Shown piece after piece: positions 6,181 to 21,898 of a DNA stretch of 64,000 bases. Made by a program: the position numbers and the translations under genes. Location: the NCBI RefSeq assembly GCF_058153355.1, contig NZ_CM177019.1, one strand, 5' to 3'. The notes below the pieces were generated by a model, which was not told the DNA's origin, made no database searches, and saw only the letters and a program-made list of their open reading frames with translations. Position 1 is the stretch's first letter; each line of letters starts with the position of its first letter.

Positions 6181-8493
6181 ATGTCCTCAGAAGGATTACG
6201 TTTCACGCTGTCGGTGGCCGGTATCGTGGAGATGGCGACGGCGGTGGTGAGCTTCCGTCTGTACCAGCACCACTGCACGCCGTTCATCCTGGATGTGGAT
6301 ATCGCCAGCGGGCTGCCCGACCTGACGGCGGAGGATTTTCTGGAGAAGAGCGCGGTGCTGACGGTCTGGCAGGGTGATATCCCGCAGCGTTACGTCAGCG
6401 GTATCGTGACGGAGGTGCAGCTCGGTGAGAACAACGACTGGCAGATGCGTTATTCCCTGAGCATCAGCCCGCCGCTGTGGCGGGCAGGGTTACGGCAGAA
6501 CTTCCGTATCTTCCAGCAGCAGGACATTCAGACGATATCAGCACAGCTTCTGAGAGAGAACGGGGTGACGGCGTGGATGCCGCTGTTCTATGAGGCGCAC
6601 CCGGCGCGGGAGTTCTGCGTGCAGTACGGGGAGAGCGACCTGGCATTCCTGACCCGGCTGTGGGCGGAGGAAGGTATCTTCTTTTATGAGCGCTGCGGTC
6701 AGGAAGGGCCGGAGCAGAAGCTGGCGGTGTGTGATGACGTGGCGGGGCTGACGGGAATGGGGGCGCTGGCGTTTAACCCGAATACCACGACCGGGGGAAC
6801 GACGGAGTACATCAGTGAGTTTCGTTACCGTGCGCAGATAAGCGTGGCGTCGGTGGAGACGCAGGATTATACGTTCAAAACGCCGGGGTGGCCGGGGTAC
6901 TACAGCCATGACGGGGAGAGCCTGAACGGGCAGGGAACGCAGTACGAGATATTTGATTATCCGGGGCGTTTCAAGGATGAGCAGCATGGCCAGGATTTTG
7001 CGCGTTACCAGACGGAAGGGTGGCGGAACGGGGCGGAGACGGCGAGCGGGGTGTGTAACACGGCGCGGCTGTGGCCGGGAACGCGGTTCCGGCTGACGGG
7101 CCATCCCTCAGAGACGCTGAACCGGGAATGGCAGGTTGTGGGAAGCACACTGCGGGGAGAACAGCCGCAGGCGCTGCACGGGAGTCACGGTGAAGGGACG
7201 ACACTGAGCAATCAGTTTGAGGTGATACCGGCAGACAGGACGTGGCGTCACGCGCCGCTGCCGAAGCCGAAGGTGGACGGCCCGCAGAGTGCCATCGTGA
7301 CCGGGCCGAAGGGTGAGGAGATATTCTGCGACGAGCATGGCCGGGTACGGGTGAAGTTTCACTGGGACCGTTATCACGGGATGACGGAGGAGAGTTCGTG
7401 CTGGATACGGGTGTCGCAGGCATGGGCGGGACCGGGGTTCGGCAATCTGGCGATACCGCGTGTGGGTCAGGAAGTGATAGTGGACTTTCTGAACGGCGAC
7501 CCGGACCAGCCCATTGTGACGGGGCGGACCTACCATGAAGATAACCGTTCACCGGGGGATTTACCGGGCACGCGGACGCAGATGACCATCCGCTCGAAGA
7601 CCTATAAAGGAAGCGGCTTTAATGAACTGCGTTTCGAGGATGCGACGGACAGTGAGCAGGTGTATATCCACGCGCAGAAGAACATGGACACGGAGGTGCT
7701 TAACGACCGGACGACGGACGTGAAGCATGACCATACGGAGACCATCGGTAACGACCAGAAGATAAGGGTGGTGAAGGGGCAGACGGTTGAGGTCGGCACC
7801 AGAAAAGAAGGGGGTCACGACCAGAGTATCACGGTGGCGAACGACCGGCGCATAACGGTACGTAATGACCAGACGCTGAAGGTGACGAATGACCGGACGG
7901 TGAGCGTGAGTCACGATGACGGCCTGTATGTCAGAAACGACCGTAAAGTGACGGTGGAAGGGAAGCAGGAGCATAAGACGACGGGGAACCATATCAGCCT
8001 GGTGGAGGGAAAGCACAGTCTGGAGGTGAAGGGCGACCTGGCGGAGAAGGTGAGTGGCGCGCTGGGGATCAAGGTGGACGGGGATATCGTGCTGGAGAGC
8101 AGCAGCCGGATAAGCCTGAAAGTGGGCGGCTCGTTCGTGGTGATACACTCTGGCGGTGTGGATATTGCGGGGCCGAAGATAAACCTCAACGGGGGAGGCA
8201 GTCCGGGGACGCCAGTACAGACGTTACAACCGGTGGTACTGGAGGCGCTGGAGGATGAGAATGATGATGAGAACCCTGAAAAATATACTCTCCAGTTCCA
8301 TTTTACAGACGATGACGGGATACCGTATTCAGAGACACGCTACATTGCCTTCTTTGAGGACGGCACGCAGACGCGAGGGGAGACGGATGAAAATGGGTAT
8401 ACGGAAACATTCTCCACTGACAGCGAGCAGACAATCGAAGTCAGATTGTTGCATTTGAATATCGATATGATATGGGGAGGGATTAATGAATAG
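6181..8493 (+). CDS. vgrG: T6SS spike protein VgrG (copy 1) with C-terminal transthyretin-like extension
   Basis: N-terminus MSSEGLRFTLSV... typical of VgrG; GAGG RBS 5 nt upstream of the ATG at 6181 (the track ORF start at 6148 is an in-frame upstream ATG); gp27/gp5-like repeats; about 90 aa extension after the PKINLNGGGSPGTP end of the conserved core. Confidence 0.9.
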   Translation: MSSEGLRFTLSVAGIVEMATAVVSFRLYQHHCTPFILDVDIASGLPDLTAEDFLEKSAVLTVWQGDIPQRYVSGIVTEVQLGENNDWQMRYSLSISPPLWRAGLRQNFRIFQQQDIQTISAQLLRENGVTAWMPLFYEAHPAREFCVQYGESDLAFLTRLWAEEGIFFYERCGQEGPEQKLAVCDDVAGLTGMGALAFNPNTTTGGTTEYISEFRYRAQISVASVETQDYTFKTPGWPGYYSHDGESLNGQGTQYEIFDYPGRFKDEQHGQDFARYQTEGWRNGAETASGVCNTARLWPGTRFRLTGHPSETLNREWQVVGSTLRGEQPQALHGSHGEGTTLSNQFEVIPADRTWRHAPLPKPKVDGPQSAIVTGPKGEEIFCDEHGRVRVKFHWDRYHGMTEESSCWIRVSQAWAGPGFGNLAIPRVGQEVIVDFLNGDPDQPIVTGRTYHEDNRSPGDLPGTRTQMTIRSKTYKGSGFNELRFEDATDSEQVYIHAQKNMDTEVLNDRTTDVKHDHTETIGNDQKIRVVKGQTVEVGTRKEGGHDQSITVANDRRITVRNDQTLKVTNDRTVSVSHDDGLYVRNDRKVTVEGKQEHKTTGNHISLVEGKHSLEVKGDLAEKVSGALGIKVDGDIVLESSSRISLKVGGSFVVIHSGGVDIAGPKINLNGGGSPGTPVQTLQPVVLEALEDENDDENPEKYTLQFHFTDDDGIPYSETRYIAFFEDGTQTRGETDENGYTETFSTDSEQTIEVRLLHLNIDMIWGGINE

Positions 8494-8576
8494 AGAGTGA
8501 CCGCCTGTAATTGGCGTGTTTTTGCATAAATGGAACAGGGTTTTGTAGTGAAAACATATTGCTAAGGAGGATTTAT

Positions 8577-9422
8577 ATGGGAGATGGAAAGGGTAGTACG
8601 AGCGGAAAAAGCCAGAGCGGTGAACAGTGTGTAGTTTTAAAGGAGGGAAAAATTACTAATGATTTTAAAATAATGATGAGAGAGGCTCTGAAGGCGCTGA
8701 TGGCTGTATTGAAGAAAAGAGTAGAAGATCTTGGTGATAAATGGGGAGAGGAACAAAATCAGGAGTTTATAAATATATTTGGTATTGATGGAAATACTTA
8801 TATTAAATTAGAGTTCCCTTTCGGGGGGCGTAAGGTTATGTTTCCAGAGAATATAAAGGCAAGGGATTATATGAGAAATGGCGTTACTCGCCTGTATGAG
8901 ATATGTGGGGAATTATCTGTGGAAGGTGATTGTGTAGACGTTACTATTCATGACCATTTCCTCAAACGTGATGCCAATTGTAATCTTGTTCTTAATGACA
9001 AAGGGGGTAATGAATATGTTGACAAAGACGTAATCAGGCCCAAAACCGGTAACTTTGTGAATTGTACAGATAATGACGCTTATGCTGCCAATGTAACTTA
9101 CGATCAGATTTTGGGTGTAAAACCTGGAGGCTTTAAAAGTTTGGTAAGTATAACTATAGGACAAAGATTTATAGATAGGCCACCCACTGGGAAAAACTCT
9201 AAGGCATCGACACTCTGCCATGAACTATCTCACTTTATAAGGTACGGGGATTCATTTAAGTTTGGAGGCATGTGGACGGAAGATATGCCGGTAGATATAG
9301 AGTATAATACAGGTGACGAATATATTGTTCATGCCACTAAATTAAAAAATGATAAAAAATCAGAACTATTTCAGAATGCATATAATATCGAACGTTATTT
9401 CGAGATTCATGTACCATATTGA
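8577..9422 (+). CDS. hypothetical protein with HExxH zinc-metallopeptidase-like motif; candidate VgrG1 cargo effector
   Basis: ATG at 8577 preceded by AAGGAGG RBS; 281 aa; motif CHELSHF (HExxH) near the C-terminus followed by acidic NTGDEY; strongly AT-rich next to GC-rich vgrG; directly downstream of vgrG1. Confidence 0.6.
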   Translation: MGDGKGSTSGKSQSGEQCVVLKEGKITNDFKIMMREALKALMAVLKKRVEDLGDKWGEEQNQEFINIFGIDGNTYIKLEFPFGGRKVMFPENIKARDYMRNGVTRLYEICGELSVEGDCVDVTIHDHFLKRDANCNLVLNDKGGNEYVDKDVIRPKTGNFVNCTDNDAYAANVTYDQILGVKPGGFKSLVSITIGQRFIDRPPTGKNSKASTLCHELSHFIRYGDSFKFGGMWTEDMPVDIEYNTGDEYIVHATKLKNDKKSELFQNAYNIERYFEIHVPY

Positions 9423-9446: not shown

Positions 9447-10355
9447 ATGCTTGCTAGATGGATTGTTTTTATTGTTTTTTTTGCGCATCCAATATTTGCT
9501 TATGATATCTCTGGCGATTATGCTGTTCATTACAGATATGGGAAGTTATATTGGAATGGAGTAATGGACAAACTTGGTGTCTATCCTCGTGTAGAGCCGA
9601 CAAGGCTTAATTATTATGATTATTATGATGATCTTTCAGCCTATGCTGTTTTTCAATATTATACTATCAGTAAAAATGAGAGTCAGTATAATCAAGATAA
9701 AAATAAAATATATCTTCATCTTTCCGTGCATCAGAAAGAAAATATTGTAGCAGCTGCAGTGGTTTTATCGAATAAAAGCCAGGGATCTTATTTTGTTCAT
9801 CGACTAACTCTTCCTCTTGACGTTAACGGCGGGCCTTACTCTTCCTTGTGTAGTGGTGTGTTTATACCGATAATGGATAACATTCAGTTGGATTTTTTAA
9901 AAAAAACAAAATGTAGCTTTGGTGAATGGAAAAATAAATCCGTTTGGCACGAGATATTAACAGGGAAAGAGCTATCCTTTGATGTCATATTGAACGATTA
10001 TTATGCCTTTTTACCGGGCATTCATCGTTATAATATAGGAACGGTAGAATTTACAATAGTTAATCAAGAGTGGTTTACAGAACAATGTATATATGAGTAT
10101 TTTCTTTCTATTATGAACTGGCGGGCAGAAAGTGAGTGTACTAATCCTATAGATAAAATAAGATATGGTATAGAGGAGTGGCGGGTTTGGAGAATTTGTG
10201 GACCTTATCGTGGGTCAGGTCTATTTCAGGATTTTTTAGCACGCTTTGGCTATCATGGCGGTAATGATAATATATTCAAAATAAGATCAAATCAGGTTGT
10301 GGTTACTATTGATGGGGATAGGGCATCTCCTCCTTATTCGTTGAGGAATTATTAA
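9447..10355 (+). CDS. hypothetical secreted protein (N-terminal signal peptide); candidate immunity or partner of the upstream HExxH protein
   Basis: ATG at 9447 with GGGGGAG RBS; N-terminus MLARWIVFIVFFAHPIFA is a typical Sec signal peptide; Tyr/Trp-rich, AT-rich; starts 25 nt after the stop of the previous gene. Confidence 0.55.
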   Translation: MLARWIVFIVFFAHPIFAYDISGDYAVHYRYGKLYWNGVMDKLGVYPRVEPTRLNYYDYYDDLSAYAVFQYYTISKNESQYNQDKNKIYLHLSVHQKENIVAAAVVLSNKSQGSYFVHRLTLPLDVNGGPYSSLCSGVFIPIMDNIQLDFLKKTKCSFGEWKNKSVWHEILTGKELSFDVILNDYYAFLPGIHRYNIGTVEFTIVNQEWFTEQCIYEYFLSIMNWRAESECTNPIDKIRYGIEEWRVWRICGPYRGSGLFQDFLARFGYHGGNDNIFKIRSNQVVVTIDGDRASPPYSLRNY

Positions 10356-10510: not shown

Positions 10511-12712
10511 ATGTCATTAAAAGGGCTGCGCTTTACGCTGACGGTGGACGGACTGGTGCCGGAGACGTTTGCGGTGGTGGATTTCCGCCTCACGCAGGCA
10601 TACTCATCGCCGTTCGTCCTGGATGTGGACGTTGCCAGCGACTCGTTCCGCCAGACGGCGGAGAAGCTGCTGGAGAAGGGGGCCGTACTGACCATCTGGC
10701 AGGGTGGCACGGCGCTGCGTTATGTGAGCGGTGTGGTGTCGGGGTTCGGCATGAAGGAGCACAACGGCTGGCAGATGCAGTACCACCTTCAGATACGTCC
10801 GCCCCTGTGGCGCAGCGGGCTGCGCCAGAACTACCGAATCTTCCAGCAGCAGGACATTCAGGCCATCTCCGCCACGCTGTTAAACGAGGACGGAGTGACG
10901 CAGTGGACGCCGCGCTTTTATGAGAGCCACCCGGCACGGGAGTTCTGCGTCCAGTACGGTGAAAGCGACATGGCGTTTCTGACCCGGCTGTGGGCGGGGG
11001 AAGGCATCTTCTTTTATGACAGATACGCTGACGACAGCCCGGAGCAGACGCTCACGCTGTGCGATGATGTGGCGGGCCTGCCGGTGTACGGGGAGATACC
11101 GTTTAACCCGAACACCCGTGAGGTGACGACGGCGTGCATCAGCCTGTTCCGCTACCAGGCGCAGGTGCGGCCCTCGCAGGTGCGTTCAAAAGACCACACG
11201 TTTAAGGTGCCGGACTGGCCGGGTATTTACATTGAGGATGCTGAAAACCTCAACGGGCAACTGAAGCAGTACAAAATCCTGGACTGGCCGGGGCGCTACA
11301 AGGACGAGCAGCATGGTCAGGACTTTACCCGCTACCGGCTGGAAGGGCTGCGTAACAGTGCTGAAACCGCCACAGGTATCAGTAACTCCCCGGCGCTGTG
11401 GCCGGGACGGCGGTTCACCTTGACGGGGCATCCGGTACAGGGAGCGAACCCGAACCGTGAGTGGCAGGTGGTGAGCAGCACGCTGACGGGGAGCCAGCCG
11501 CAGGCGCTGCACGGGAGTCACGGTGAAGGGACGACACTGAGCAATCAGTTTGAGGTGATACCGGCAGACAGGACGTGGCGTCACGCGCCGCTGCCGAAGC
11601 CGAAGGTGGACGGCCCGCAGAGTGCCATCGTGACCGGGCCGAAGGGTGAGGAGATATTCTGCGACGAGCATGGCCGGGTACGGGTGAAGTTTCACTGGGA
11701 CCGTTATCACGGGATGACGGAGGAGAGTTCGTGCTGGATACGGGTGTCGCAGGCATGGGCGGGACCGGGGTTCGGCAATCTGGCGATACCGCGTGTGGGT
11801 CAGGAAGTGATAGTGGACTTTCTGAACGGCGACCCGGACCAGCCCATTGTGACGGGGCGGACCTACCATGAAGATAACCGTTCACCGGGGGATTTACCGG
11901 GCACGCGGACGCAGATGACCATCCGCTCGAAGACCTATAAAGGAAGCGGCTTTAATGAACTGCGTTTCGAGGATGCGACGGACAGTGAGCAGGTGTATAT
12001 CCACGCGCAGAAGAACATGGACACGGAGGTGCTTAACGACCGGACGACGGACGTGAAGCATGACCATACGGAGACCATCGGTAACGACCAGAAGATAAGG
12101 GTGGTGAAGGGGCAGACGGTTGAGGTCGGCACCAGAAAAGAAGGGGGTCACGACCAGAGTATCACGGTGGCGAACGACCGGCGCATAACGGTACGTAATG
12201 ACCAGACGCTGAAGGTGACGAATGACCGGACGGTGAGCGTGAGTCACGATGACGGCCTGTATGTCAGAAACGACCGTAAAGTGACGGTGGAAGGGAAGCA
12301 GGAGCATAAGACGACGGGGAACCATATCAGCCTGGTGGAGGGAAAGCACAGTCTGGAGGTGAAGGGCGACCTGGCGAGGAAGATTACCGGTGCGCTGGGA
12401 ATGAAGGTCCGGAATGAAATCGTACTGGAGAGTGGCGGTAAAATCACCCTAAAGGTGGGTGGTTCGTTTGTGGTCATCCATTCAGGGGGCGTGGACATCG
12501 TCGGGCCGAAAATCAATCTCAATAGCGGCGGTAGTCCGGGAACGCCGGTGCCGACGCTACGACCGGCGGTTTTGAAAGCGCTGGCAGATTATGACAATGG
12601 CGGACCTGGAACTGAAGGGGCGGAGCCACCACGGAAAAGTGTACAGGAAGCCTTTGATCCTCCCCAGCAGGATAAGGTACCGCCACAACGGCCGGGAAGA
12701 TTCTCACGATAA
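10511..12712 (+). CDS. vgrG: T6SS spike protein VgrG (copy 2) with short Pro-rich C-terminal tail
   Basis: 733-aa ORF, N-terminus MSLKGLRFTLTVDGL...; central about 0.88 kb is nucleotide-identical to vgrG1; GGAGG RBS upstream. Confidence 0.92.
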   Translation: MSLKGLRFTLTVDGLVPETFAVVDFRLTQAYSSPFVLDVDVASDSFRQTAEKLLEKGAVLTIWQGGTALRYVSGVVSGFGMKEHNGWQMQYHLQIRPPLWRSGLRQNYRIFQQQDIQAISATLLNEDGVTQWTPRFYESHPAREFCVQYGESDMAFLTRLWAGEGIFFYDRYADDSPEQTLTLCDDVAGLPVYGEIPFNPNTREVTTACISLFRYQAQVRPSQVRSKDHTFKVPDWPGIYIEDAENLNGQLKQYKILDWPGRYKDEQHGQDFTRYRLEGLRNSAETATGISNSPALWPGRRFTLTGHPVQGANPNREWQVVSSTLTGSQPQALHGSHGEGTTLSNQFEVIPADRTWRHAPLPKPKVDGPQSAIVTGPKGEEIFCDEHGRVRVKFHWDRYHGMTEESSCWIRVSQAWAGPGFGNLAIPRVGQEVIVDFLNGDPDQPIVTGRTYHEDNRSPGDLPGTRTQMTIRSKTYKGSGFNELRFEDATDSEQVYIHAQKNMDTEVLNDRTTDVKHDHTETIGNDQKIRVVKGQTVEVGTRKEGGHDQSITVANDRRITVRNDQTLKVTNDRTVSVSHDDGLYVRNDRKVTVEGKQEHKTTGNHISLVEGKHSLEVKGDLARKITGALGMKVRNEIVLESGGKITLKVGGSFVVIHSGGVDIVGPKINLNSGGSPGTPVPTLRPAVLKALADYDNGGPGTEGAEPPRKSVQEAFDPPQQDKVPPQRPGRFSR

Positions 12713-12721
12713 GGACTGAAC

Positions 12722-15211
12722 ATGAAAATCAGCCATCCCATCAGGGATAAAGAAGGCAAAGAGTTTCGCTCACTGGATGAGATAATGCGGCTTATTGACA
12801 AAGAAGCGCACGGAACCTGGCTGCTGGGTGGAAACGGGCTGTGGCACGGCGGGATACATATCAGTGACGTGTCTAATCCGTTATCAGCCCTGAAACCGGA
12901 TACCGCCGCTACCGGAGAACCGGTTCCTCTTCAGTTTATGGCCGATGGCACCATTGCGGCGTACCGGATAAATAATGATTACCTGAAAGGCCCCTACAAA
13001 GGGCAGCAACTCCGTTACAGCAGCACATTTGTTCTGGTGAAATCGCAGTGCCAGCCAGACCCGCAAAAAAAAGAAAGCTGGCTGGAATTTTACTGTCTCT
13101 ATATGCATCTGGCCCCGGTGAACGATTATCCCGGCTCCCCCTGCTATAAAGTTAAAACCGGGCATGGTGGCATATTGCTGCACCGATACATCCCGGGAAA
13201 GAACGGCCTTCCCGAGGGGCAGGAAAGCGGAGATCATGCCACGTACTGGATACCCCCGAAAATCAGCGGAAACAGGACACTTAATGCGGGAGATCGGTTT
13301 GTGTCATCCCGGACCGGACGTTTTTACGTGACCAATAACGGCCAGCCGGTCCTGACGACATTCGGACTGGTTCGCCTGCTGGAAGGCAATAAACCGGGGA
13401 ATGAGCAGTACTGGGTGACCCTGGATCCGGATCTGATGGAGTCAGATGGCGAAATACAGATGCTGATGCCTGAGTGGATGCAGAAGGCGAAGGCAAAAGG
13501 CATTTTTGACTCGGTACAGACGGTCGACGAAACGGAAGAGTGGAAAGTCAGTGCCGGAACACCGGTCGGATTTATGGGATGCGAGGATTATCCTGGCGAG
13601 GGAAGCGGTGAGATTGAGCGCGAGTGGTTCGTCCATCTGGAGGTTCTGAGTACAGACCCGAATATGCCAAAGTTCTTATCCAACCCGGCAGGCGTTAAGG
13701 GAGAAAAACGGACTGTTCTGGCACCAAAAGGGATAATTTTATACACCCGGCAGGCCGTTCCGGGACAGGAGGTATTTACCGCAACCGCAGCCACGCTGGG
13801 TGCTCAGCGCGTTCTTCCGCGGGAAGCCACGACACCAGTCACGGATGAATCGCAGCAGTGGTGGTTTAATATCACCGGAACCGGCTGGCTGCCACAAAAG
13901 GATGTTGAAGAGGCCGGACAGTATGATTTACTGAAGCTGGGTTTTCAACCGCTGGAGGAGAACAGCAGCGGTGACATGACGTACAGCCCGTACGAAGGAT
14001 GGGTGCCGGAAGCGTTTGACTCAATAAGCCGTGCCGCAGAACAGGGAGATGAGTGGCTGTATGAGCAGGTACCGCCCTTTTATCGTGAGCTGATGGCGGG
14101 TATGGATCAGGACGGTGATGGAAAAGTGACGGAGGAAGAGATCAGACAGGCGCTGATCGTGCGTGAACCACTGGTGAGAAATGTGGTGAATCATCTGATA
14201 GTTAAACACCACAGCGAATGGTACGGAGGGCGCTCGACAGGGCGGTGGGAAGGATTTTATAAAGATCTGGATACAGAGGAAGTGGCATACTGTGAGAAGT
14301 GGCAGCTGGATCTGGAGTGGATGAGCGGGGTATCTCCGTTTAATAGTGATGATGCTGTGTGGCATTTTCATCCGGTTGTGTTTTTGGACGCTATTAATTC
14401 CAAATCTGTGTGTGCTTGCAACAGAGATATAACATTAGATGAATTAAAAAAAGTTGCTCCTGCAGTAAGTGAAGGTCTTCTCAAAAGGTACCTCTACGAT
14501 ATAAATGCAGGGTTTATTCGGTTTGGTATGACCACTTGTAGAGAAAAAGCCCATTTTCTTGCTCAAATTATTCACGAGAGCGGTTATTTTAGATATACCA
14601 AAGAAATTAATGGTGAATCAGCTTCATATAGTCCGTGGTATGGCCGAGGCTTAATACAAGTTACAGGCGAAAGTAATTACACCGCCTATGGGGAATATAT
14701 CAATGAGGACGTAACATCTTCAGATTCCGCAAGAGATAAACTCATATCCTCCCCACATTGCGTATTATCTGCGTTTTGGTATTTCAATATATTCAAAAGA
14801 ATAAATGAAGATGCTAAAAATGATGATTTTAATAAAATTACAGTAGTGATTAATGGAGGGTATAATCATTATGATGAACGGTTGTCGATATTTAATAAAT
14901 TGGTTACCTCACTTGCTGCCGAGCATTTAAATCAGAAAGAAATGAACGACGATTTCTTGTTTGATGATAGTGACGTATATGATAATAAAGTATATGCTTT
15001 GGGATGGGGGATATGGCATGATCCTGATAGCTCCCGAAGAGGGACGATCAAGAGTAACGAAGAAGCATTAAAAGGTTATAGAAGGGCGAAAGAATTAATT
15101 GACCTGCATCCGTTTCCTCAGGAAGGGCGTGAGGGTGATAGAAAAGTATATGGAATAGAAAAAAGGAATATATCCACATTTGTAGAGAGACGAATAACTG
15201 AACTGGAGTAA
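12722..15211 (+). CDS. modular T6SS effector candidate: unknown N-terminal domain, EF-hand, C-terminal GH19 (chitinase/lysozyme-like) peptidoglycan hydrolase domain
   Basis: 829-aa ORF 9 nt after the vgrG2 stop; canonical EF-hand loop DQDGDGKVTEEE; C-terminal motifs AHFLAQIIHESG and YGRGLIQVTGESNY match GH19-family catalytic signatures; the C-terminal third is AT-rich compared with the N-terminal part. Confidence 0.75.
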   Translation: MKISHPIRDKEGKEFRSLDEIMRLIDKEAHGTWLLGGNGLWHGGIHISDVSNPLSALKPDTAATGEPVPLQFMADGTIAAYRINNDYLKGPYKGQQLRYSSTFVLVKSQCQPDPQKKESWLEFYCLYMHLAPVNDYPGSPCYKVKTGHGGILLHRYIPGKNGLPEGQESGDHATYWIPPKISGNRTLNAGDRFVSSRTGRFYVTNNGQPVLTTFGLVRLLEGNKPGNEQYWVTLDPDLMESDGEIQMLMPEWMQKAKAKGIFDSVQTVDETEEWKVSAGTPVGFMGCEDYPGEGSGEIEREWFVHLEVLSTDPNMPKFLSNPAGVKGEKRTVLAPKGIILYTRQAVPGQEVFTATAATLGAQRVLPREATTPVTDESQQWWFNITGTGWLPQKDVEEAGQYDLLKLGFQPLEENSSGDMTYSPYEGWVPEAFDSISRAAEQGDEWLYEQVPPFYRELMAGMDQDGDGKVTEEEIRQALIVREPLVRNVVNHLIVKHHSEWYGGRSTGRWEGFYKDLDTEEVAYCEKWQLDLEWMSGVSPFNSDDAVWHFHPVVFLDAINSKSVCACNRDITLDELKKVAPAVSEGLLKRYLYDINAGFIRFGMTTCREKAHFLAQIIHESGYFRYTKEINGESASYSPWYGRGLIQVTGESNYTAYGEYINEDVTSSDSARDKLISSPHCVLSAFWYFNIFKRINEDAKNDDFNKITVVINGGYNHYDERLSIFNKLVTSLAAEHLNQKEMNDDFLFDDSDVYDNKVYALGWGIWHDPDSSRRGTIKSNEEALKGYRRAKELIDLHPFPQEGREGDRKVYGIEKRNISTFVERRITELE

Positions 15212-15216
15212 TTGAT

Positions 15217-15627
15217 ATGAAAGTTAATTTATTGGTTTTACTGTTTTGTTTGGTGCCTTGTTGTTTATTGGCTAAACAACAAACAACGGTAGGCTGTTTT
15301 AGCGCTGGGAAAACAAATTTAAAGTTTGTTGAAATATCGTCTGGCGATATTTTTTTAGGTTATGTGATTTATGAGAAATCCTCAAAATTTATACCTCTTG
15401 CGTTTATAAATAAATTAGAAGTGACTTTCGATGACAGGCCTTCTGAATTTTCTTATGCATGGAGCGAGGTTGTAAATGGAAAAATTAATGGGTTGTATGT
15501 TGTTTCCACACAAGGTGCAAGATTTAATTTGTTTCATTATAAATCAATAAGTGGGAAAACAACTGAGTTTGAAGAAAATATTGAGGCATATAATGATGAT
15601 GGTACTGATTGCAAATGGACTGGATGA
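15217..15627 (+). CDS. putative periplasmic immunity protein for the GH19-type effector
   Basis: 136-aa ORF starting 6 nt after the effector stop; N-terminal signal peptide MKVNLLVLLFCLVPCCLLA; AT-rich like the toxin domain. Confidence 0.6.
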   Translation: MKVNLLVLLFCLVPCCLLAKQQTTVGCFSAGKTNLKFVEISSGDIFLGYVIYEKSSKFIPLAFINKLEVTFDDRPSEFSYAWSEVVNGKINGLYVVSTQGARFNLFHYKSISGKTTEFEENIEAYNDDGTDCKWTG

Positions 15628-15789: not shown

Positions 15790-17070
15790 AAAGATCACGT
15801 AACGCTGCTTTTTTGTACTATACAATTCGCATTTTATGTTTGAAAATTGAGATATTCCTCATTACCTGAAGCTGTTTTTTATTGCTTATACATGATCAAA
15901 TACTCCTTACATAATTAAGGAGAACAAAATGGTACTTAAAAAATTGATGGAACATATTTCTATTATCCCCGATTACAGACAAGCCTGGAAAGTGGAACAT
16001 AAATTATCGGATATTCTACTGTTGACTATTTGCGCCGTTATTTCGGGTGCAGAAGGCTGGGAAGATATAGAGGATTTTGGGGAAACACATCTCGATTTTT
16101 TGAAGCAATATGGTGATTTTGAAAATGGTATTCCTGTTCACGATACCATTGTCAGAGTTGTATCCTGTATCAGTCCTGCAAAATTTCACGAGTGCTTTAT
16201 TAACTGGATGCGTGACTGCCATTCTTCAGATGATAAAGGCGTCATTGCAATTGATGGAAAAACGCTCCGGCACTCTTATGACAAGAGTCGCCGCAGGGGA
16301 GCGATTCATGTCATTAGTGCGTTCTCAACAATGCACAGTCTGGTCATCGGACAGATCAAGACGGATGAGAAATCCAATGAGATTACAGCTATCCCAGAAC
16401 TTCTTAACATGCTGGATATTAAAGGAAAAATCATCACAACTGATGCGATGGGTTGCCAGAAAGATATTGCAGAGAAGATACAAAAACAGGGAGGTGATTA
16501 TTTATTCGCGGTAAAAGGAAACCAGGGGCGGCTAAATAAAGCCTTTGAGGAAAAATTTCCGCTGAAAGAATTAAATAATCCAGATCATGACAGTTAAGCG
16601 ATTAGTGAAAAGAGTCACGGCAGAGAAAAAATCCGTCTTCATATTGTTTGCGATGTCCCTGATGAACTTATTGATTTCACGTTTGAATGGAAAGGTCTGA
16701 AGAAATTATGCGTGGCAGTCTCCTTTCGGTTAATAATAGCAGAACAAAAGAAAGAGCCAGAAATGACGGTCAGATATTATATCAGTTCTGCTGATTTAAC
16801 CGCAGAGAAGTTCGCCACAGCAATCCGAAACCACTGGCACGTGGAGAATAAGCTGCACTGGCGTCTGGACGTGGTAATGAATGAAGACGACTGCAAAATA
16901 AGAAGAGGAAACGCCGCAGAATTATTTTCAGGGATACGGCACATCGCTATTAATATTTTAACGAATGATAAGGTATTCAAGGCAGGGTTAAGACGTAAGA
17001 TGCGAAAAGCAGCCATGGACAGAAACTATCTCGCGTCAGTCCTTGCGGGGAGCGGGCTTTCGTAATCTTG
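15790..17070 (+). mobile_element. H-repeat (H-rpt) element, ISAs1 family, nearly full length
   Basis: Encodes the H-repeat-associated transposase-like protein; its 5' end, including about 140 bp upstream of the ATG, recurs at 19865-20290 and in degenerate form at 21975-22635; element boundaries are approximate. Confidence 0.75.
15929..17065 (+). pseudogene. ISAs1-family (H-repeat-associated) transposase, interrupted by a single in-frame TAA
   Basis: ORFs 15929-16597 and 16712-17065 are in the same frame (669 and 114 nt offsets are multiples of 3) and separated only by TAA at 16598-16600; combined length about 378 codons, the size of intact H-rpt proteins. Confidence 0.75.
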
Positions 17071-17075
17071 CCCTG

Positions 17076-19492
17076 GAGGTGATACCGGCGGACAGGACGT
17101 GGCGTCACGCGCCCCTGCCGAAGCCGAAGGTGGACGGCCCGCAGAGTGCCATCGTGACCGGGCCGAAGGGCGAGGAGATATTCTGCGACGAGCATGGCCG
17201 GGTACGGGTGAAGTTTCACTGGGACCGTTATCACGGGATGACGGAGGAGAGTTCATGCTGGATACGGGCGTCGCAGGCATGGGCGGGACCGGGGTTCGGC
17301 AATCTGGCGATACCGCGTGTGGGTCAGGAAGTGATAGTGGACTTTCTGAACGGCGACCCGGACCAGCCCATTGTGACGGGGCGGACATACCATGAGGACA
17401 ACCGTTCACCGGGGGATTTACCGGGCACGCGGACGCAGATGACCATCCGCTCGAAGACCTATAAAGGAAGCGGCTTTAATGAACTGCGTTTCGAGGATGC
17501 GACGGACAGTGAGCAGGTGTATATCCACGCGCAGAAGAACATGGACACGGAGGTGCTTAACGACCGGACGACGGACGTGAAGCATGACCATACGGAGACC
17601 ATCGGTAACGACCAGAAGATAAGGGTGGTGAAGGGGCAGACGGTTGAGGTCGGCACCAGAAAAGAAGGGGGTCACGACCAGAGTATCACGGTGGCGAACG
17701 ACCGGCGCATAACGGTACGTAATGACCAGACGCTGAAGGTGACGAATGACCGGACGGTGAGCGTGAGTCACGATGACGGCCTGTATGTCAGAAACGACCG
17801 TAAAGTGACGGTGGAAGGGAAGCAGGAGCATAAGACGACGGGGAACCATATCAGTCTGGTGGAGGGAACGCACAGTCTGGAGGTGAAGGGCGACCTGGCG
17901 AGGAAGATTACCGGTGCGCTGGGAATGAAGGTCCGGGATGAAATCGTACTGGAGAGTGGTGGTAAAATCACCCTGAAGTGGGTGGCTCGTTTGTGGTCGT
18001 TCATTCTGGTGGTGTGGATATTGTCGGACCGAAAATAAATCTGAATTGCGGGCGCAGTCCGGGGACGCCGATAAATACACTACAACCGGCAGTTATGGAC
18101 GCTCTGGCTGACGAGCAGTATGACAGAGGGAATGCTGGCGGCGGGAATGACGGAGAGCCTAGTGATGAGGATGAATCAGAAGGTGGAGAAGAAGACAAGG
18201 ACGATTCAGATGAACTGGTAATTCCTGTATACGCAAAATCTTGTCTGAAGGAGAAAGGCTGCACTGATGCTGGTACGACCATGGAGCCATCGAAACATTT
18301 TGGTGATATGGCTCTATTTGCCCAGCCAGTGGAGGATGACTGTTGCGGCTATGGTACACACTATCATGACGATGAAGTGGAGCAACTTGCGCAGTCAGCA
18401 AAAAAAACCTCAGGAGCGAACTCACTGACGGGGGAAATGACAGTTGCGTCAGCGGGTGTTGCGGTTCCACTAGCGGCGGAACAGTCTGCGGGAGTTTTAA
18501 CTCGCGTATGGGGAACATTAGGGGCATGGGGTGGAGAAGGTTTTTTAAGTGTATCAAAAACGGTGCCAGCCCTTGGTGTCCTAGTATCAGCACTATATCC
18601 AATACCTGCCGGTGAAGGTAGTGATAAAGTTCCTGGACGGGATGAACAGTGGCTCGAAAATGAGCTACGTCGTAAAGCGCAATCTGGAGAGACGGCAGCT
18701 ACGCGGGCGCGCTTTCTCTTTCAGCGGAATACTGCTGGTGAATTGAGGACATACGGATACCACACACCCGCAGGTTCGGAACTTGAAGGTGTTCGGGTAG
18801 CATTGATGGAGTGGAATAAGGAATTTTCCCGTTATGAATTTTCACCTGTGTCTGATTCGGGACCAAAAATATTTTGGACGCCTGCAAAGCCAGAAGGTTC
18901 AGAGCAGCCCATACACACCGGAACTCCTGTCGAACCAGTTGATCTACCTGATATTTATGTTAATCCGATACCCGATGAAAAAACAGATATCACCACGCCG
19001 CCTTCTCCAATGCCGGAGGAGCGAAATTTTAATGACTGGATACTTGTCTTTCCTGACGGTGCGGAATTAACACCAATATATGTGTATCTGAAAACTGCAA
19101 GGGATGTAGCGGGAACAGTAACAGGTAAGGGGGAGGTGTTAGCAGGTACAGGAAGATGGCTGTCGCAGGCGGGGAAAAGCTTAGGAGTGCCAATTCCACA
19201 ACAGGTCGCAAATAAACTTCGGAGTAAGTCATTTAACAATTTTGATGAATTCATGGCAGCTTTCTGGACTGCTGTAGGTGAATGTCCAGAACTATTGAGC
19301 CAATTTAATAAAGCTAACCAAACGTTGATAAAGCGTGGACGCGCACCTTATACTATATCAAGACAAAGAGTTGGGGGGCGAGGTACATTTGAAATTCATC
19401 ATATTGACGAAATCCAATATGGGGGAGAAGTCTATGATATTGATAATCTTAGAGTAAACACACCTAAAAACCACATACGATTGCATAAATAA
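17076..19492 (+). pseudogene. 5'-truncated, frameshifted vgrG (copy 3) fused to colicin E9-like HNH DNase toxin domain
   Basis: vgrG homology begins abruptly at about 17076, right after the H-rpt end, so the N-terminal half is missing; a 1-nt deletion near 17977 (ctgaagtgggtgg here, ctaaaggtgggtgg in vgrG2) splits the reading frame; C-terminal domain ...GRGTFEIHHIDEIQYGGEVYDIDNLRVNTPKNHIRLHK matches the colicin E9/E7 DNase HNH motif. Confidence 0.8.
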
Positions 19493-19505: not shown

Positions 19506-19778
19506 ATGGAGTTTAAAAATAATCTAGAAGATTATACGGAAGATGAATTTATCGAACTTCTAAATAATTTTTTTGAACCACCTGAGGAATTGCATGGCGA
19601 TAAGTTGTCGAAGTTTATTGATGATCTTGTAAGTCATTTTATTAGAATCACTCAGCACCCAGATGGTAGTGATTTGATATTCTATCCATCTGAAGATAGA
19701 GAAGATAGTCCCCAAGGGATTGTTGATGAGTTAAAACGATGGCGAGCATCGCAGGGGCTAGGATGCTTTAAAATATAA
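19506..19778 (+). CDS. colicin DNase-type immunity protein (Im9/Im7-like)
   Basis: 90-aa ORF 14 nt after the DNase stop with GGAGG RBS; MEFKNNLEDYTEDEFIELL...HPDGSDLIFYP...DSPQGIV...RWRASQG aligns with the Im9 family (DYTE.EF, HP.GSDLI.YP, DSP.GIV). Confidence 0.85.
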   Translation: MEFKNNLEDYTEDEFIELLNNFFEPPEELHGDKLSKFIDDLVSHFIRITQHPDGSDLIFYPSEDREDSPQGIVDELKRWRASQGLGCFKI

Positions 19779-19864: not shown

Positions 19865-20295
19865 GAAAGATCACCAGAAGTACACTTTTTGTACTAAATA
19901 ATTCGCATTTTATGTTCAATAATTGAGATATTCCTCATTACCTGAGGCTGTTTTTTATTGCTTATACATGATCAAATACTCCTTACATAATTAAGGAGAA
20001 CAAAATGGAACTTAAAAAATTGATGGAACATATTTCTGTTATTCCTGATTACAGACAAGCCTGGAAAGTGGAACATAAATTGTCGGATATTCTACTTTTG
20101 ACTATTTGCTCCGTCATTTCTGGTACAGAAGGCTGGCAAGATATAGAGAATTTTGGGGAAACACATCTCGATTTTTTGAAGCGACATGGTGATTTTTGAA
20201 ATGGTATTCCTGTTCACATACCATTGCCAGAGTTGTATCCTGTATCAGCCCTGCAAAATTTCATGAGTGCTTTATTAAAAGGAAACCAGGGGCGG
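19865..20295 (+). mobile_element. H-repeat 5' fragment (includes truncated 64-codon transposase ORF 20005-20199)
   Basis: Near-identical to 15790-16210 of the full H-rpt; the ORF ends prematurely (GDF then stop); joined through a short internal H-rpt piece (GNQGRL) to effector-derived sequence. Confidence 0.75.
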
Positions 20296-21465
20296 CTTAA
20301 TATCACCGGAACCGGCTGGCTGCCACAAAAGGATGTTGAAGAGGCCGGACAGTATGATTTACTGAAGCTGGGTTTTCAACCGCTGGAGGAGAACAGCAGC
20401 GGTGACATGACGTACAGCCCGTACGAAGGATGGGTGCCGGAAGCGTTTGACTCAATAAGCCGTGCCGCAGAACAGGGAGATGAGTGGCTGTATGAGCAGG
20501 TACCGCCCTTTTATCGTGAGCTGATGGCGGGTATGGATCAGGACGGTGATGGAAAAGTGACGGAGGAAGAGATCAGACAGGCGCTGACCGTGCGTGAACC
20601 ACTGGTGAGAAATGTGGTGAATCGTCTGACAGTCAGACACCACAGCGAGTGGTACGGCGGTCGCTCGACGGGACGCTGGGAAGGGTTTTATAAAGATCTG
20701 GACACCGAGGAAGTGGCATACTGTGAAAAGTGGCAGCTGGATCTGGAGTGGATGAGCGGGGTGTCTCCGTTTAATAGTGATGATGCTGTGTGGCATTTTC
20801 ATCCGGTTGTGTTTTTGAATGCTATTAATAATAGCAATTACCCAAAAACTCCTGTGAATAATGAACTTATTCCATTGGAATTTTTACGATTTTATAACGG
20901 AGATACCATTGATGATGCAGACTATGAAAATGCTGCAAGGACACTACAATGCGAAGTGGCTGCAATTAAAGCTGTTGCAAAAACTGAAACTGGTAGTTCC
21001 GGTAGCTATTTTAAATTTGAACAAGAAGATGATTACGTCCCCTCAATTCTTTTTGAAAGACATCATTTCCATCGATATACGAATGGTGTGTATGATTCTC
21101 AACCTGATATTTCCAACAGCCGTTCTGGCGGTTATGGAACACGATCGGAGCAATATCAAAAATTACTTCGTGCATATGTTTTAGATAAGCAAGCTGCGCT
21201 TAAATCGGCATCGTGGGGTAAATTTCAGATATTGGCTTCAAATTACCAAGCTACCGGGTACTCTTCGCCCGAAGAGTTTATAATATCGATTTCAGAGTTA
21301 GAGAAAAACCATCTGGCGGCATTCATTAACTTCATAAAATCTAATCCTGTATTATTGCGTGCTATTAGAGATAAAGATTGGCTTAACTTTGCTCTATGTT
21401 ATAATGGGCAAAGTCAGCGAGGATATGATGACAGAATAAGGGCTAATTATGAGCAATATAGATAG
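20224..21465 (+). CDS. orphan, N-terminally truncated effector module: conserved EF-hand middle region plus alternative C-terminal N-acetylmuramidase (DUF3380-like) domain
   Basis: Residues from NITGTGWLPQKDVEEAG through HPVVFL are about 95% identical at nucleotide level to 13865-14395 of the 829-aa effector, then diverge into a C-terminus with ILFERHHFHRYT, SWGKFQILASNY and LCYNGQSQ motifs typical of the DUF3380 muramidase family; the first 20 codons derive from H-rpt sequence in another frame. Confidence 0.7.
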   Translation: MPELYPVSALQNFMSALLKGNQGRLNITGTGWLPQKDVEEAGQYDLLKLGFQPLEENSSGDMTYSPYEGWVPEAFDSISRAAEQGDEWLYEQVPPFYRELMAGMDQDGDGKVTEEEIRQALTVREPLVRNVVNRLTVRHHSEWYGGRSTGRWEGFYKDLDTEEVAYCEKWQLDLEWMSGVSPFNSDDAVWHFHPVVFLNAINNSNYPKTPVNNELIPLEFLRFYNGDTIDDADYENAARTLQCEVAAIKAVAKTETGSSGSYFKFEQEDDYVPSILFERHHFHRYTNGVYDSQPDISNSRSGGYGTRSEQYQKLLRAYVLDKQAALKSASWGKFQILASNYQATGYSSPEEFIISISELEKNHLAAFINFIKSNPVLLRAIRDKDWLNFALCYNGQSQRGYDDRIRANYEQYR

Positions 21466-21898
21466 AGCATTAATTTTTATTTTTTTATCTGGAATTCCCT
21501 GGACTCTACACGCAGGAAATAATTATTTTTTATGTAATACATCCAAAGGAACTTTGTCATTAACAAGTTTTGGTGAAACGTTGATTTATGAAATGAATAG
21601 TCAGCATGGGAATAAATTTCAATTCATTTCAGATGGACCAATGTATTCAGGATTTTTTTATAATCATTACTCCAGATTTCAAACGGATTACTTTAGCGTT
21701 AGTTTTATTCAAAGTGGATATAAGTACTCCGTGTTTAGCAATTACGACAACGGTAGTAACATGCGAGGGGTTAGTGTCATTGATATGAAAACAAAAAAAG
21801 AATACGTTTATAATTGCAAAGATTATAAAGTGGACAGGCTTTATAATCTGAAAAAAAAGCTTAAATGTGATATTAATAATGTACTAAGTTGTCAGTAA
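21449..21898 (+). CDS. putative periplasmic immunity protein for the orphan muramidase domain
   Basis: 149-aa ORF overlapping the toxin stop by 17 nt; N-terminal signal peptide (MSNIDRALIFIFLSGIPWTLHA); AT-rich. Confidence 0.55.
   Translation: MSNIDRALIFIFLSGIPWTLHAGNNYFLCNTSKGTLSLTSFGETLIYEMNSQHGNKFQFISDGPMYSGFFYNHYSRFQTDYFSVSFIQSGYKYSVFSNYDNGSNMRGVSVIDMKTKKEYVYNCKDYKVDRLYNLKKKLKCDINNVLSCQ

Follow-up and report, generated by a model that had tools for sequence, protein, structure and literature searches.

We analysed a 64,000-nucleotide stretch of contig NZ_CM177019.1 (assembly GCF_058153355.1), hereafter called the window. It belongs to an E. coli-like chromosome, and its interval between yibF and yibH is occupied by an array of orphan type VI secretion system (T6SS) vgrG-effector-immunity cassettes. 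The left flank of the array (yiaY, selB, selA, yibF) and its right flank (yibH, yibI, mtlA) have matches, with identities of up to 98.5%, in all but one of 5,426 complete E. coli genomes (5,425); in E. coli K-12 the place between yibF and yibH is that of rhsA. We propose that the variable C-terminal tails of the VgrG spike proteins act as built-in adaptors for the cargo encoded just downstream, a reading to which we would assign a probability of roughly three in four. The two cassettes on which the argument turns contain the following features, each vgrG gene being followed, as a preliminary description of this DNA had it, by a different cargo gene, and after this by an immunity gene.

6181–8493, plus strand: vgrG1, T6SS spike protein of 770 residues (TIGR03361, Pfam and PDB match)
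7162–8043 and 11495–12376, plus strand: the two copies of an 882-bp tract of 100% identical DNA, delimited by exact-match extension
8251–8283, plus strand: acidic linker of the VgrG1 tail (residues 691–701, EDENDDENPEK), delimited by the tail alignment and low in predicted local distance difference test (pLDDT) score
8284–8451, plus strand: transthyretin (TTR)-like beta-sandwich core of the VgrG1 tail (residues 702–757, YTLQFHF…EVRLL), the proposed cargo-docking module
8452–8490, plus strand: terminal 13-residue peptide of VgrG1, HLNIDMIWGGINE, which co-varies with effector subtype
8577–9422, plus strand: eff1, cargo effector of 281 residues with a predicted M35/aspzincin fold
9447–10355, plus strand: imm1, putative periplasmic immunity protein of 302 residues
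10511–12712, plus strand: vgrG2, spike paralogue of 733 residues (TIGR03361, Pfam domains)
12584–12709, plus strand: VgrG2-specific tail of 42 residues (residues 692–733) with eight Pro, ending in PPQRPGRFSR; candidate linear motif for the docking of eff2
12722–15211, plus strand: eff2, putative polymorphic cargo toxin of 829 residues (Pfam EF-hand, phmmer against the PDB)
15217–15627, plus strand: imm2, putative immunity protein of 136 residues with a signal peptide, from the translation

With TIGR03361 scores of 589 bits (VgrG1) and 587 bits (VgrG2) against a cutoff of 186, both spike proteins are TssI/VgrG, and both contain the Pfam domains Phage_GPD, Phage_base_V and Gp5_trimer_C. The best PDB match of VgrG1 is P. 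aeruginosa VgrG1 (E 9e-93). Its backbone is of the Gp5_trimer_C type, and the Pfam scan gave no match of VgrG1 to DUF2345 (PF10106/PF13296). The preliminary description had credited VgrG1 and VgrG2 with an identical core. Part of this holds, in that the 882-bp tract, which encodes residues 328–621, that is, the OB fold and most of the gp5 beta-helix, is exact; but windowed identities, computed among five vgrG copies (those of the window and of strain N96), together with exact-match extension, confine the identity to this tract, and we therefore reject an identical core for the protein as a whole. The rest of the core has diverged, and over their whole length the two proteins are 79% identical. 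The gp27-like N-terminal 327 residues are encoded by DNA of ~65–75% identity, with the 5' 1 kb of the two genes ranging over ~60–85% per 100-bp window, and the last turns of the beta-helix (8044–8250) are ~67–70% identical. Past ~8251 in vgrG1 and ~12584 in vgrG2 there is no alignment at all, the proteins parting completely after the motif LQPxVLxAL, so that the different C-terminal tails of the preliminary description are indeed unrelated sequences. An exact 882-bp match within flanks that are 30–50% mismatched is not a matter of chance and indicates, as a sequence signature, gene conversion between the tandem paralogues. The paralogues of strain N96 (locus L001, 14182–16494 and 18516–20717) share the tract with a different left boundary, and this shift suggests that conversion is recurrent. 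Together with its vgrG3 counterpart (17075–17977), the tract would also lend itself to the deletion or duplication of cassettes.

The VgrG1-specific tail comprises 80 residues (residues 691–770, nt 8251–8490). It is acidic, as had been described, with 22 Asp and Glu against four Lys and Arg and a pI of 4.05, and the sequence quoted for it was right; the length of about 90 residues was too generous, and the span of 8140–8493 given to it takes in ~37 residues of the common beta-helix end. In the alignment of homologous tails, the linkers are rich in Asp, Glu, Gly and Ser and vary in length from 11 to ~60 residues, the 56-residue core (YTLQFHFTDDDGIPYSETRYIAFFEDGTQTRGETD…) is nearly invariant, and the terminal peptide varies again, over ~13–18 residues. 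Terminal peptides of the form NIDMxxGGxxE go with effectors of 246–281 residues, and those ending in …DYYIFEVNCNEHQ, …EGHYGR(E) and …EYLDPAWEGNHG go with effector subtypes of 195–204 and 267–268 residues. The tail is predicted to fold as a TTR-like beta-sandwich after a flexible linker. The transthyretin-like resemblance noted earlier thus finds support in the modelled fold, and weakly in sequence: the sole PDB sequence match returned by phmmer is the TTR domain of enteroaggregative E. coli (EAEC) VgrG1 (6SJL_A, residues 772–830, E 0.033), which is also the structural match of lowest root-mean-square deviation (rmsd) to the tail model. The tail might instead be read as an immunoglobulin (Ig)-like domain for surface or target binding, or as an accessory of the spike tip, and Ig-like structures do appear among its structural matches. 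These share 9–15% identity with it, at rmsd values larger than that of the EAEC domain, and a reading of this kind would not explain why the tail is strictly syntenic with, and co-varies with, a single effector family, as set out below; we regard it as very improbable.

The evidence that carries our proposal is the company that the tail keeps. A homologous TTR-like tail is found directly upstream of an aspzincin-type effector in 14 of 14 cassettes, from nine genera. The E. coli cassettes are those of DA61218, A24, 33E, PAR (two) and MOD1-EC7003, and likewise of N96; the other loci are from Buttiauxella izardii, Rahnella rivi, Enterobacter sp., Phytobacter ursingii, Citrobacter farmeri, Cronobacter sakazakii, Salmonella enterica and Franconibacter helveticus. 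Because the tail, as query of a word-indexed homologue search, gave just 21 short fragments and no full-length VgrG, the genomic context was recovered via the effector homologues: a contig scan with the effector alignment confirmed three loci, and exact-protein look-ups supplied the remaining ones. The effector start lies at, or a few bases from, the vgrG stop codon in these loci, an 8-nt overlap being usual. At larger scale, 722 of the 5,426 E. coli genomes match the tail/eff1 query, and in those sampled the VgrG adjoins an M35 peptidase.

Linkage of this kind would also be expected if specificity resided elsewhere, be it in the body of the spike (where its beta-helix ends, or in a DUF2345 extension) or in a separate adaptor, with the tail merely co-inherited by way of a breakpoint upstream of it. 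In favour of this one may cite that the last beta-helix turns differ between VgrG1 and VgrG2 to the extent given above, and that the EAEC effector Tle1 makes further contacts on the gp5-like needle (PMC10715212). What speaks against it is, first, that two backbone classes carry the tail, the Gp5_trimer_C type, as in the window, and a T6SS_Vgr plus DUF2345 type; over the 200 residues that lie 120–320 residues from the C-terminus the two are at most 20% identical, and their tails are 40–69% identical. The same tail and effector family thus occur on two unrelated C-terminal backbones, one of them without DUF2345. Secondly, in Mantel tests on 12 VgrG-effector pairs, tail similarity tracked effector similarity (r = 0.39, p = 0.002), most strongly for the N-terminal 75 residues of the effector (r = 0.59, p = 0.0004), and backbone similarity did not (r = 0.05, p = 0.30). 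Thirdly, Pfam and NCBIfam scans found no DUF4123, DUF1795 or DUF2169 adaptor gene in the cassette. We consider selection by the spike body or by a separate adaptor unlikely, and return to it below with the published binding experiment. What we observe at these loci is their gene content, the folds, and a tail that is syntenic and co-varies with its effector, and this fits a tail that acts as the adaptor.

The cargo of this tail in the window, eff1, has its HELSH motif at 9219–9233 and Asp236 at ~9282. Across 74 family sequences, H215, E216, H219 and D236 do not vary; eff1 has an intact set of catalytic residues, and D236 would be the third zinc ligand. Its model takes up a predicted aspzincin (M35) fold. 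Compared with the M35 aspzincins peptidyl-Lys metalloendopeptidase (1G12), AsaP1 (2X3A) and deuterolysin (1EB6), eff1 has an extra conserved N-terminal module, a proposed role as T6SS cargo and a dedicated immunity protein. It matches no Pfam family, PF14521 (Aspzincin_M35) included, its homologues scoring 20–25 bits against the 30-bit cutoff, and from its sequence we would place it in a divergent subfamily of M35. A literature search on aspzincin with T6SS gave no match. The conserved N-terminal ~70 residues (8577–8790) are the proposed docking region. The gene starts 83 nt after vgrG1, behind a strong Shine-Dalgarno sequence (AAGGAGG). In the intervening stretch (8480–8576), an ATG at the usual overlap position opens only a four-codon relic (ATGAATAGAGAGTGA, MNRE*), and the first dozen residues of eff1 differ from those of its relatives; taken together with the later start, these features suggest that the 5' end of eff1 was remodelled.

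An N-terminal signal peptide (MLARWIVFIVFFAHPIFA) on imm1 implies a periplasmic target of eff1. A homologue of imm1 follows the effector wherever the downstream open reading frame (ORF) was translated, and a gene of similar size is present in the other loci; imm1 itself matches no Pfam or NCBIfam family. In strain N96 (L001, 16576–18360) the effector gene has lost the stop codon that separates it from the immunity gene, and the resulting read-through fusion of 594 residues is labelled by RefSeq as a single ‘M35 family metalloendopeptidase’. We rejected a reading of eff1 and imm1 as one gene, since the window has both the stop codon that N96 lost and a signal-peptide start.

How tail and effector might fit together was modelled with AlphaFold2 (AF2) as a fusion of the last 82 residues of VgrG1, a (GGGGS)6 linker and eff1. 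The model has a mean pLDDT of 83.6 and a predicted template modelling score (pTM) of 0.78. With the tail left unplaced, the 281 effector residues among the 393 of the chain would, by our own estimate, give a pTM of at most ~0.69–0.72, so that the tail is placed with moderate confidence. Residues 7–11 and 20–25 of the Gly/Ser-rich eff1 N-terminus become strands in this model (pLDDT ~81), ~58 tail residues are ordered, and the TTR-like sandwich alignment extends over 79 residues. On the simplest reading, the N-terminal strands of eff1 would complete the sandwich of the tail. The terminal 13 residues of the tail have no confident placement (pLDDT ~51).

An arrangement of this type is known from the EAEC Sci-1 VgrG1-Tle1 pair (6SJL/6SK0), in which a C-terminal TTR domain on a flexible linker loads a phospholipase by fold complementation, the TTR domain being complemented by an N-terminal strand of Tle1 (PMC10715212). 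VgrG1 of the window differs from EAEC VgrG1 in its backbone, which lacks the DUF2345 extension, a difference arguably inessential to the mechanism, and the cargo is an M35-fold metallopeptidase here and the Tle1 lipase there. Acinetobacter baumannii VgrG17-Tae17 offers a second likeness, in that the last few dozen VgrG residues select the downstream cargo via the effector N-terminus, the C-terminal TTR region of VgrG17 and the N-terminus of Tae17 making edge-to-edge strand contacts (PMC11796386); the cargo there includes a peptidoglycan hydrolase, and a separate adaptor is not needed in Acinetobacter.

The principle of cargo selection is thus already established, and a 50%-identical homologue of eff1, the M35 effector of E. 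coli PAR (L023, 8631–9419), has already been tested experimentally. It is toxic and is neutralised by its immunity protein, and it co-precipitates with a DUF2345 fragment and not with an N-terminal VgrG piece, for which the authors credit DUF2345 (PMC10673891). This assignment is a further argument for specificity in the spike body. In PAR a frameshift splits the VgrG, which is of the T6SS-1/DUF2345 type, into two ORFs, and this VgrG ends in a homologous tail (…RLLNQNIDMILGGVHE; frameshifted VgrG end …FLFTDDDGLPYANTKYIACFSDGTQKEGITDENGYTENFNTDSKQTIDVRLLNQNIDMILGGVHE). The published ‘DUF2345’ fragment therefore contains the tail, and because VgrG1 of the window has the tail without DUF2345, we argue that the tail is the common determinant. 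The frameshift in the second PAR VgrG would explain the separate ‘VgrG’ and ‘DUF2345’ genes of that study, whose locus tags AKO63_2953-2955 we infer to be the RefSeq genes of L023. PAR carries two tandem VgrG(TTR tail)-M35-immunity cassettes in its T6SS-1 cluster (L023, 1771–5637 and 6121–10430). Its toxin was likened by the authors to P. aeruginosa VgrG2b (PMC10673891), which is classed as a gluzincin (PMC6899460); unlike VgrG2b, eff1 matches the aspzincins in its modelled fold.

The VgrG2 tail is short and Pro-rich, just as it had been quoted, and it has no Pfam or NCBIfam family and no predicted fold. Related endings were found in Salmonella (L016, …VPPQLRRIFSR), in Enterobacter cloacae on a DUF2345-type backbone (L020, …QPPMQRRGRFSR) and, as a relic ~10 nt from the effector, in Leclercia (L018, …PAQRRGSFSR). 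Salmonella and E. cloacae share the terminal motif PPxQRxGRFSR, and in both, as in the window, where eff2 starts 10 nt past the vgrG2 stop, the tail ends 10 nt ahead of an effector that has the same N-domain and starts with MK(I)xxPIRxxxGxEFRSLDE…. Tail 2 and eff2 thus appear to be linked in cassette-like manner across backbones. The C-termini of Agrobacterium tumefaciens VgrG1 and VgrG2 reportedly select downstream cargo likewise. To these and to VgrG17 the VgrG2 tail has no detectable sequence relation; it is Pro-rich, with a conserved terminal GRFSR.

For eff2 itself, the layout comprises an N-domain (~residues 1–330), an EF-hand (~14105) and a GH19/endolysin-like C-terminal domain (~residues 600–730). 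The EF-hand is all that the Pfam scan returned, and the C-terminal domain matches PWe2 endolysin (2.3e-13), endolysin 4OK7 (7.6e-10) and, more weakly, chitinases by phmmer against the PDB; RefSeq labels the N96 orthologue ‘chitinase’. We take eff2 to be a putative polymorphic peptidoglycan-hydrolase (cell-wall) toxin, whose ~330-residue N-domain is common to toxins with other tips (M23 plus lysozyme, or pesticin, elsewhere, and a muramidase in the orphan copy of the window). The position of imm2 is conserved in strain N96, and the protein has no Pfam or NCBIfam family. A VgrG(TTR tail)-M35 effector-immunity cassette followed by an eff2-family toxin is also present in Salmonella (L016, 1082–7807), where a truncated VgrG with a Pro-rich tail stands between the M35 cassette and the toxin, and in Rahnella (L010, 1468–7492). 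Since this order recurs in Salmonella and Rahnella, the two-cassette arrangement is likely older than E. coli.

In the mechanism that we propose, each VgrG would combine a conserved spike with a cassette-specific C-terminal tail. The VgrG1 tail would most likely bind the conserved N-terminal region of eff1, probably loading it by beta-strand (fold) complementation as in EAEC VgrG1-Tle1, with one effector per VgrG protomer; eff1 would then act in the periplasm and be neutralised by the signal-peptide protein imm1. The PPQRPGRFSR tail of VgrG2 would most likely serve as a linear docking motif for the eff2 N-domain. Tail, effector and immunity gene may move jointly through recombination at the point where the beta-helix of the spike ends, and the spike core of the tandem copies may be homogenised by gene conversion. 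We infer the physical binding, the geometry of the complementation, and that the cargo is delivered by a T6SS whose genes lie outside the window. The preliminary description had attributed effector selection to the tails, and this gains support from the synteny in all 14 cassettes, the co-variation in the Mantel tests, the AF2 fusion, the published PAR co-immunoprecipitation and the linkage of tail 2.

One might go further and suppose that the TTR-like tail, without DUF2345, is a sufficient and portable docking module for enterobacterial M35-fold T6SS toxins, and that its terminal 13 residues could touch the peptidase domain and keep it inactive up to the time of delivery. We put this forward only tentatively and think it rather doubtful. 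The possible inhibition is suggested by the co-variation of the 13-residue peptide with effector subtype next to a near-invariant core, and would parallel the way in which VgrG inhibits Tle1; sufficiency of the tail, if true, would revise the attribution of binding to DUF2345 made in 2023. The adaptor role of the tails, if confirmed, would leave the current picture of T6SS cargo selection unchanged and would make this locus a clean natural example of T6SS spike re-arming, with a portable tail-toxin-immunity unit grafted onto gene-converted spikes. Residues 691–770 of VgrG1 and 1–70 of eff1 would then be a concrete pair for strand-complementation loading of a non-lipase effector, and the occurrence of the tail-toxin unit on two unrelated backbones would recommend the ~70-residue tail, not the DUF2345 extension, for engineering spikes with chosen cargo.

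Several observations weigh against tails as cargo adaptors and need to be kept in view. The VgrG1 tail has no family among the Pfam and NCBIfam profiles (Pfam, E ≤ 10), and Foldseek gave no significant match of the tail model to the PDB, returning generic beta-sandwiches with 6SJL at rank 16. The AF2 fusion drew on an alignment with few paired rows (13, with 61 unpaired effector rows). The 83-nt gap between vgrG1 and eff1 is without the overlap seen in relatives. In one locus (L002) a more distant tail of the TTR type (45% identical) is followed by an unrelated protein of 349 residues, from which we conclude that the fold may be a generic docking scaffold, with specificity in the sequence detail. 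Binding in the PAR study was credited to DUF2345 rather than to the TTR-like part, and docking of eff2 by VgrG2 is argued from sequence and synteny. Finally, the cassettes are orphans, with no T6SS core genes within the window.

This last point also favours another explanation, that the cassettes are decaying orphans without working cargo selection and that the differences between the tails are recombination leftovers in an island ridden with insertion sequences. Of the 5,426 complete E. coli genomes, just three, those of N96, MFDS1022581 and MFDS1019527, have the same vgrG1 and vgrG2 cassettes, the effector-immunity fusion of N96 looks like damage of this sort, and decay is plain to see in the remainder of the array, which contains the following features.

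15929–17070 (end approximate), plus strand: ISAs1-family insertion sequence (Pfam DDE_Tnp_1_assoc and DDE_Tnp_1)
17075–19492, plus strand: vgrG3 pseudogene, a gp5/OB remnant followed by an out-of-frame Pyocin_S plus colicin-DNase ORF
19506–19778, plus strand: colicin/pyocin DNase immunity protein (PF01320, E 1.5e-32)
20224–21898, plus strand: orphan module of a 5'-truncated eff2 paralogue and a putative immunity ORF, recognised by sequence comparison

ISAs1, whose own transposase is broken into two ORFs, stands in place of the 5' half of vgrG3, and the orphan toxin module has likewise lost its 5' end. As opposed to this, the ORFs of vgrG1, eff1, imm1, vgrG2, eff2 and imm2 are without exception intact over their full length, eff1 has a good ribosome-binding site in addition to its intact catalytic residues, and the cassettes are 92–99% conserved between strains. 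We therefore judge decay of the two main cassettes to be unlikely, slightly more so than selection by the spike body, and continue to prefer working tails with working cargo.

The gp5/OB remnant of vgrG3 extends from 17075 to ~17977, where comparison with vgrG1 and vgrG2 shows a 1-nt deletion at ~17978 (CTGAA-GTGGG) that shifts the reading frame just ahead of the toxin part; the Pyocin_S plus colicin-DNase ORF (17978–19492) is in another frame than the remnant. VgrG3 had been described as continuing into a fused toxin. The toxin part does adjoin, but a continuation would be obtained only after repair of both the missing 5' half and the frameshift. We reject a functional evolved VgrG on account of the ISAs1 truncation and the 1-nt frameshift, which leave no continuous ORF from gp27 to toxin, and vgrG3 is the pseudogene of an evolved (toxin-fused) VgrG. 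The colicin/pyocin immunity gene that follows it is intact. In the orphan module, the truncated paralogue is 95% identical to residues 382–562 of eff2, the EF-hand included, then switches to an N-acetylmuramidase tip and is followed by the putative immunity ORF at 21449–21898; in its make-up the module is like the orphan C-terminal modules at rhs/cdi loci. Outside the array, downstream of the mtl genes, lies an ORF of 1571 residues (30915–35630, plus strand).

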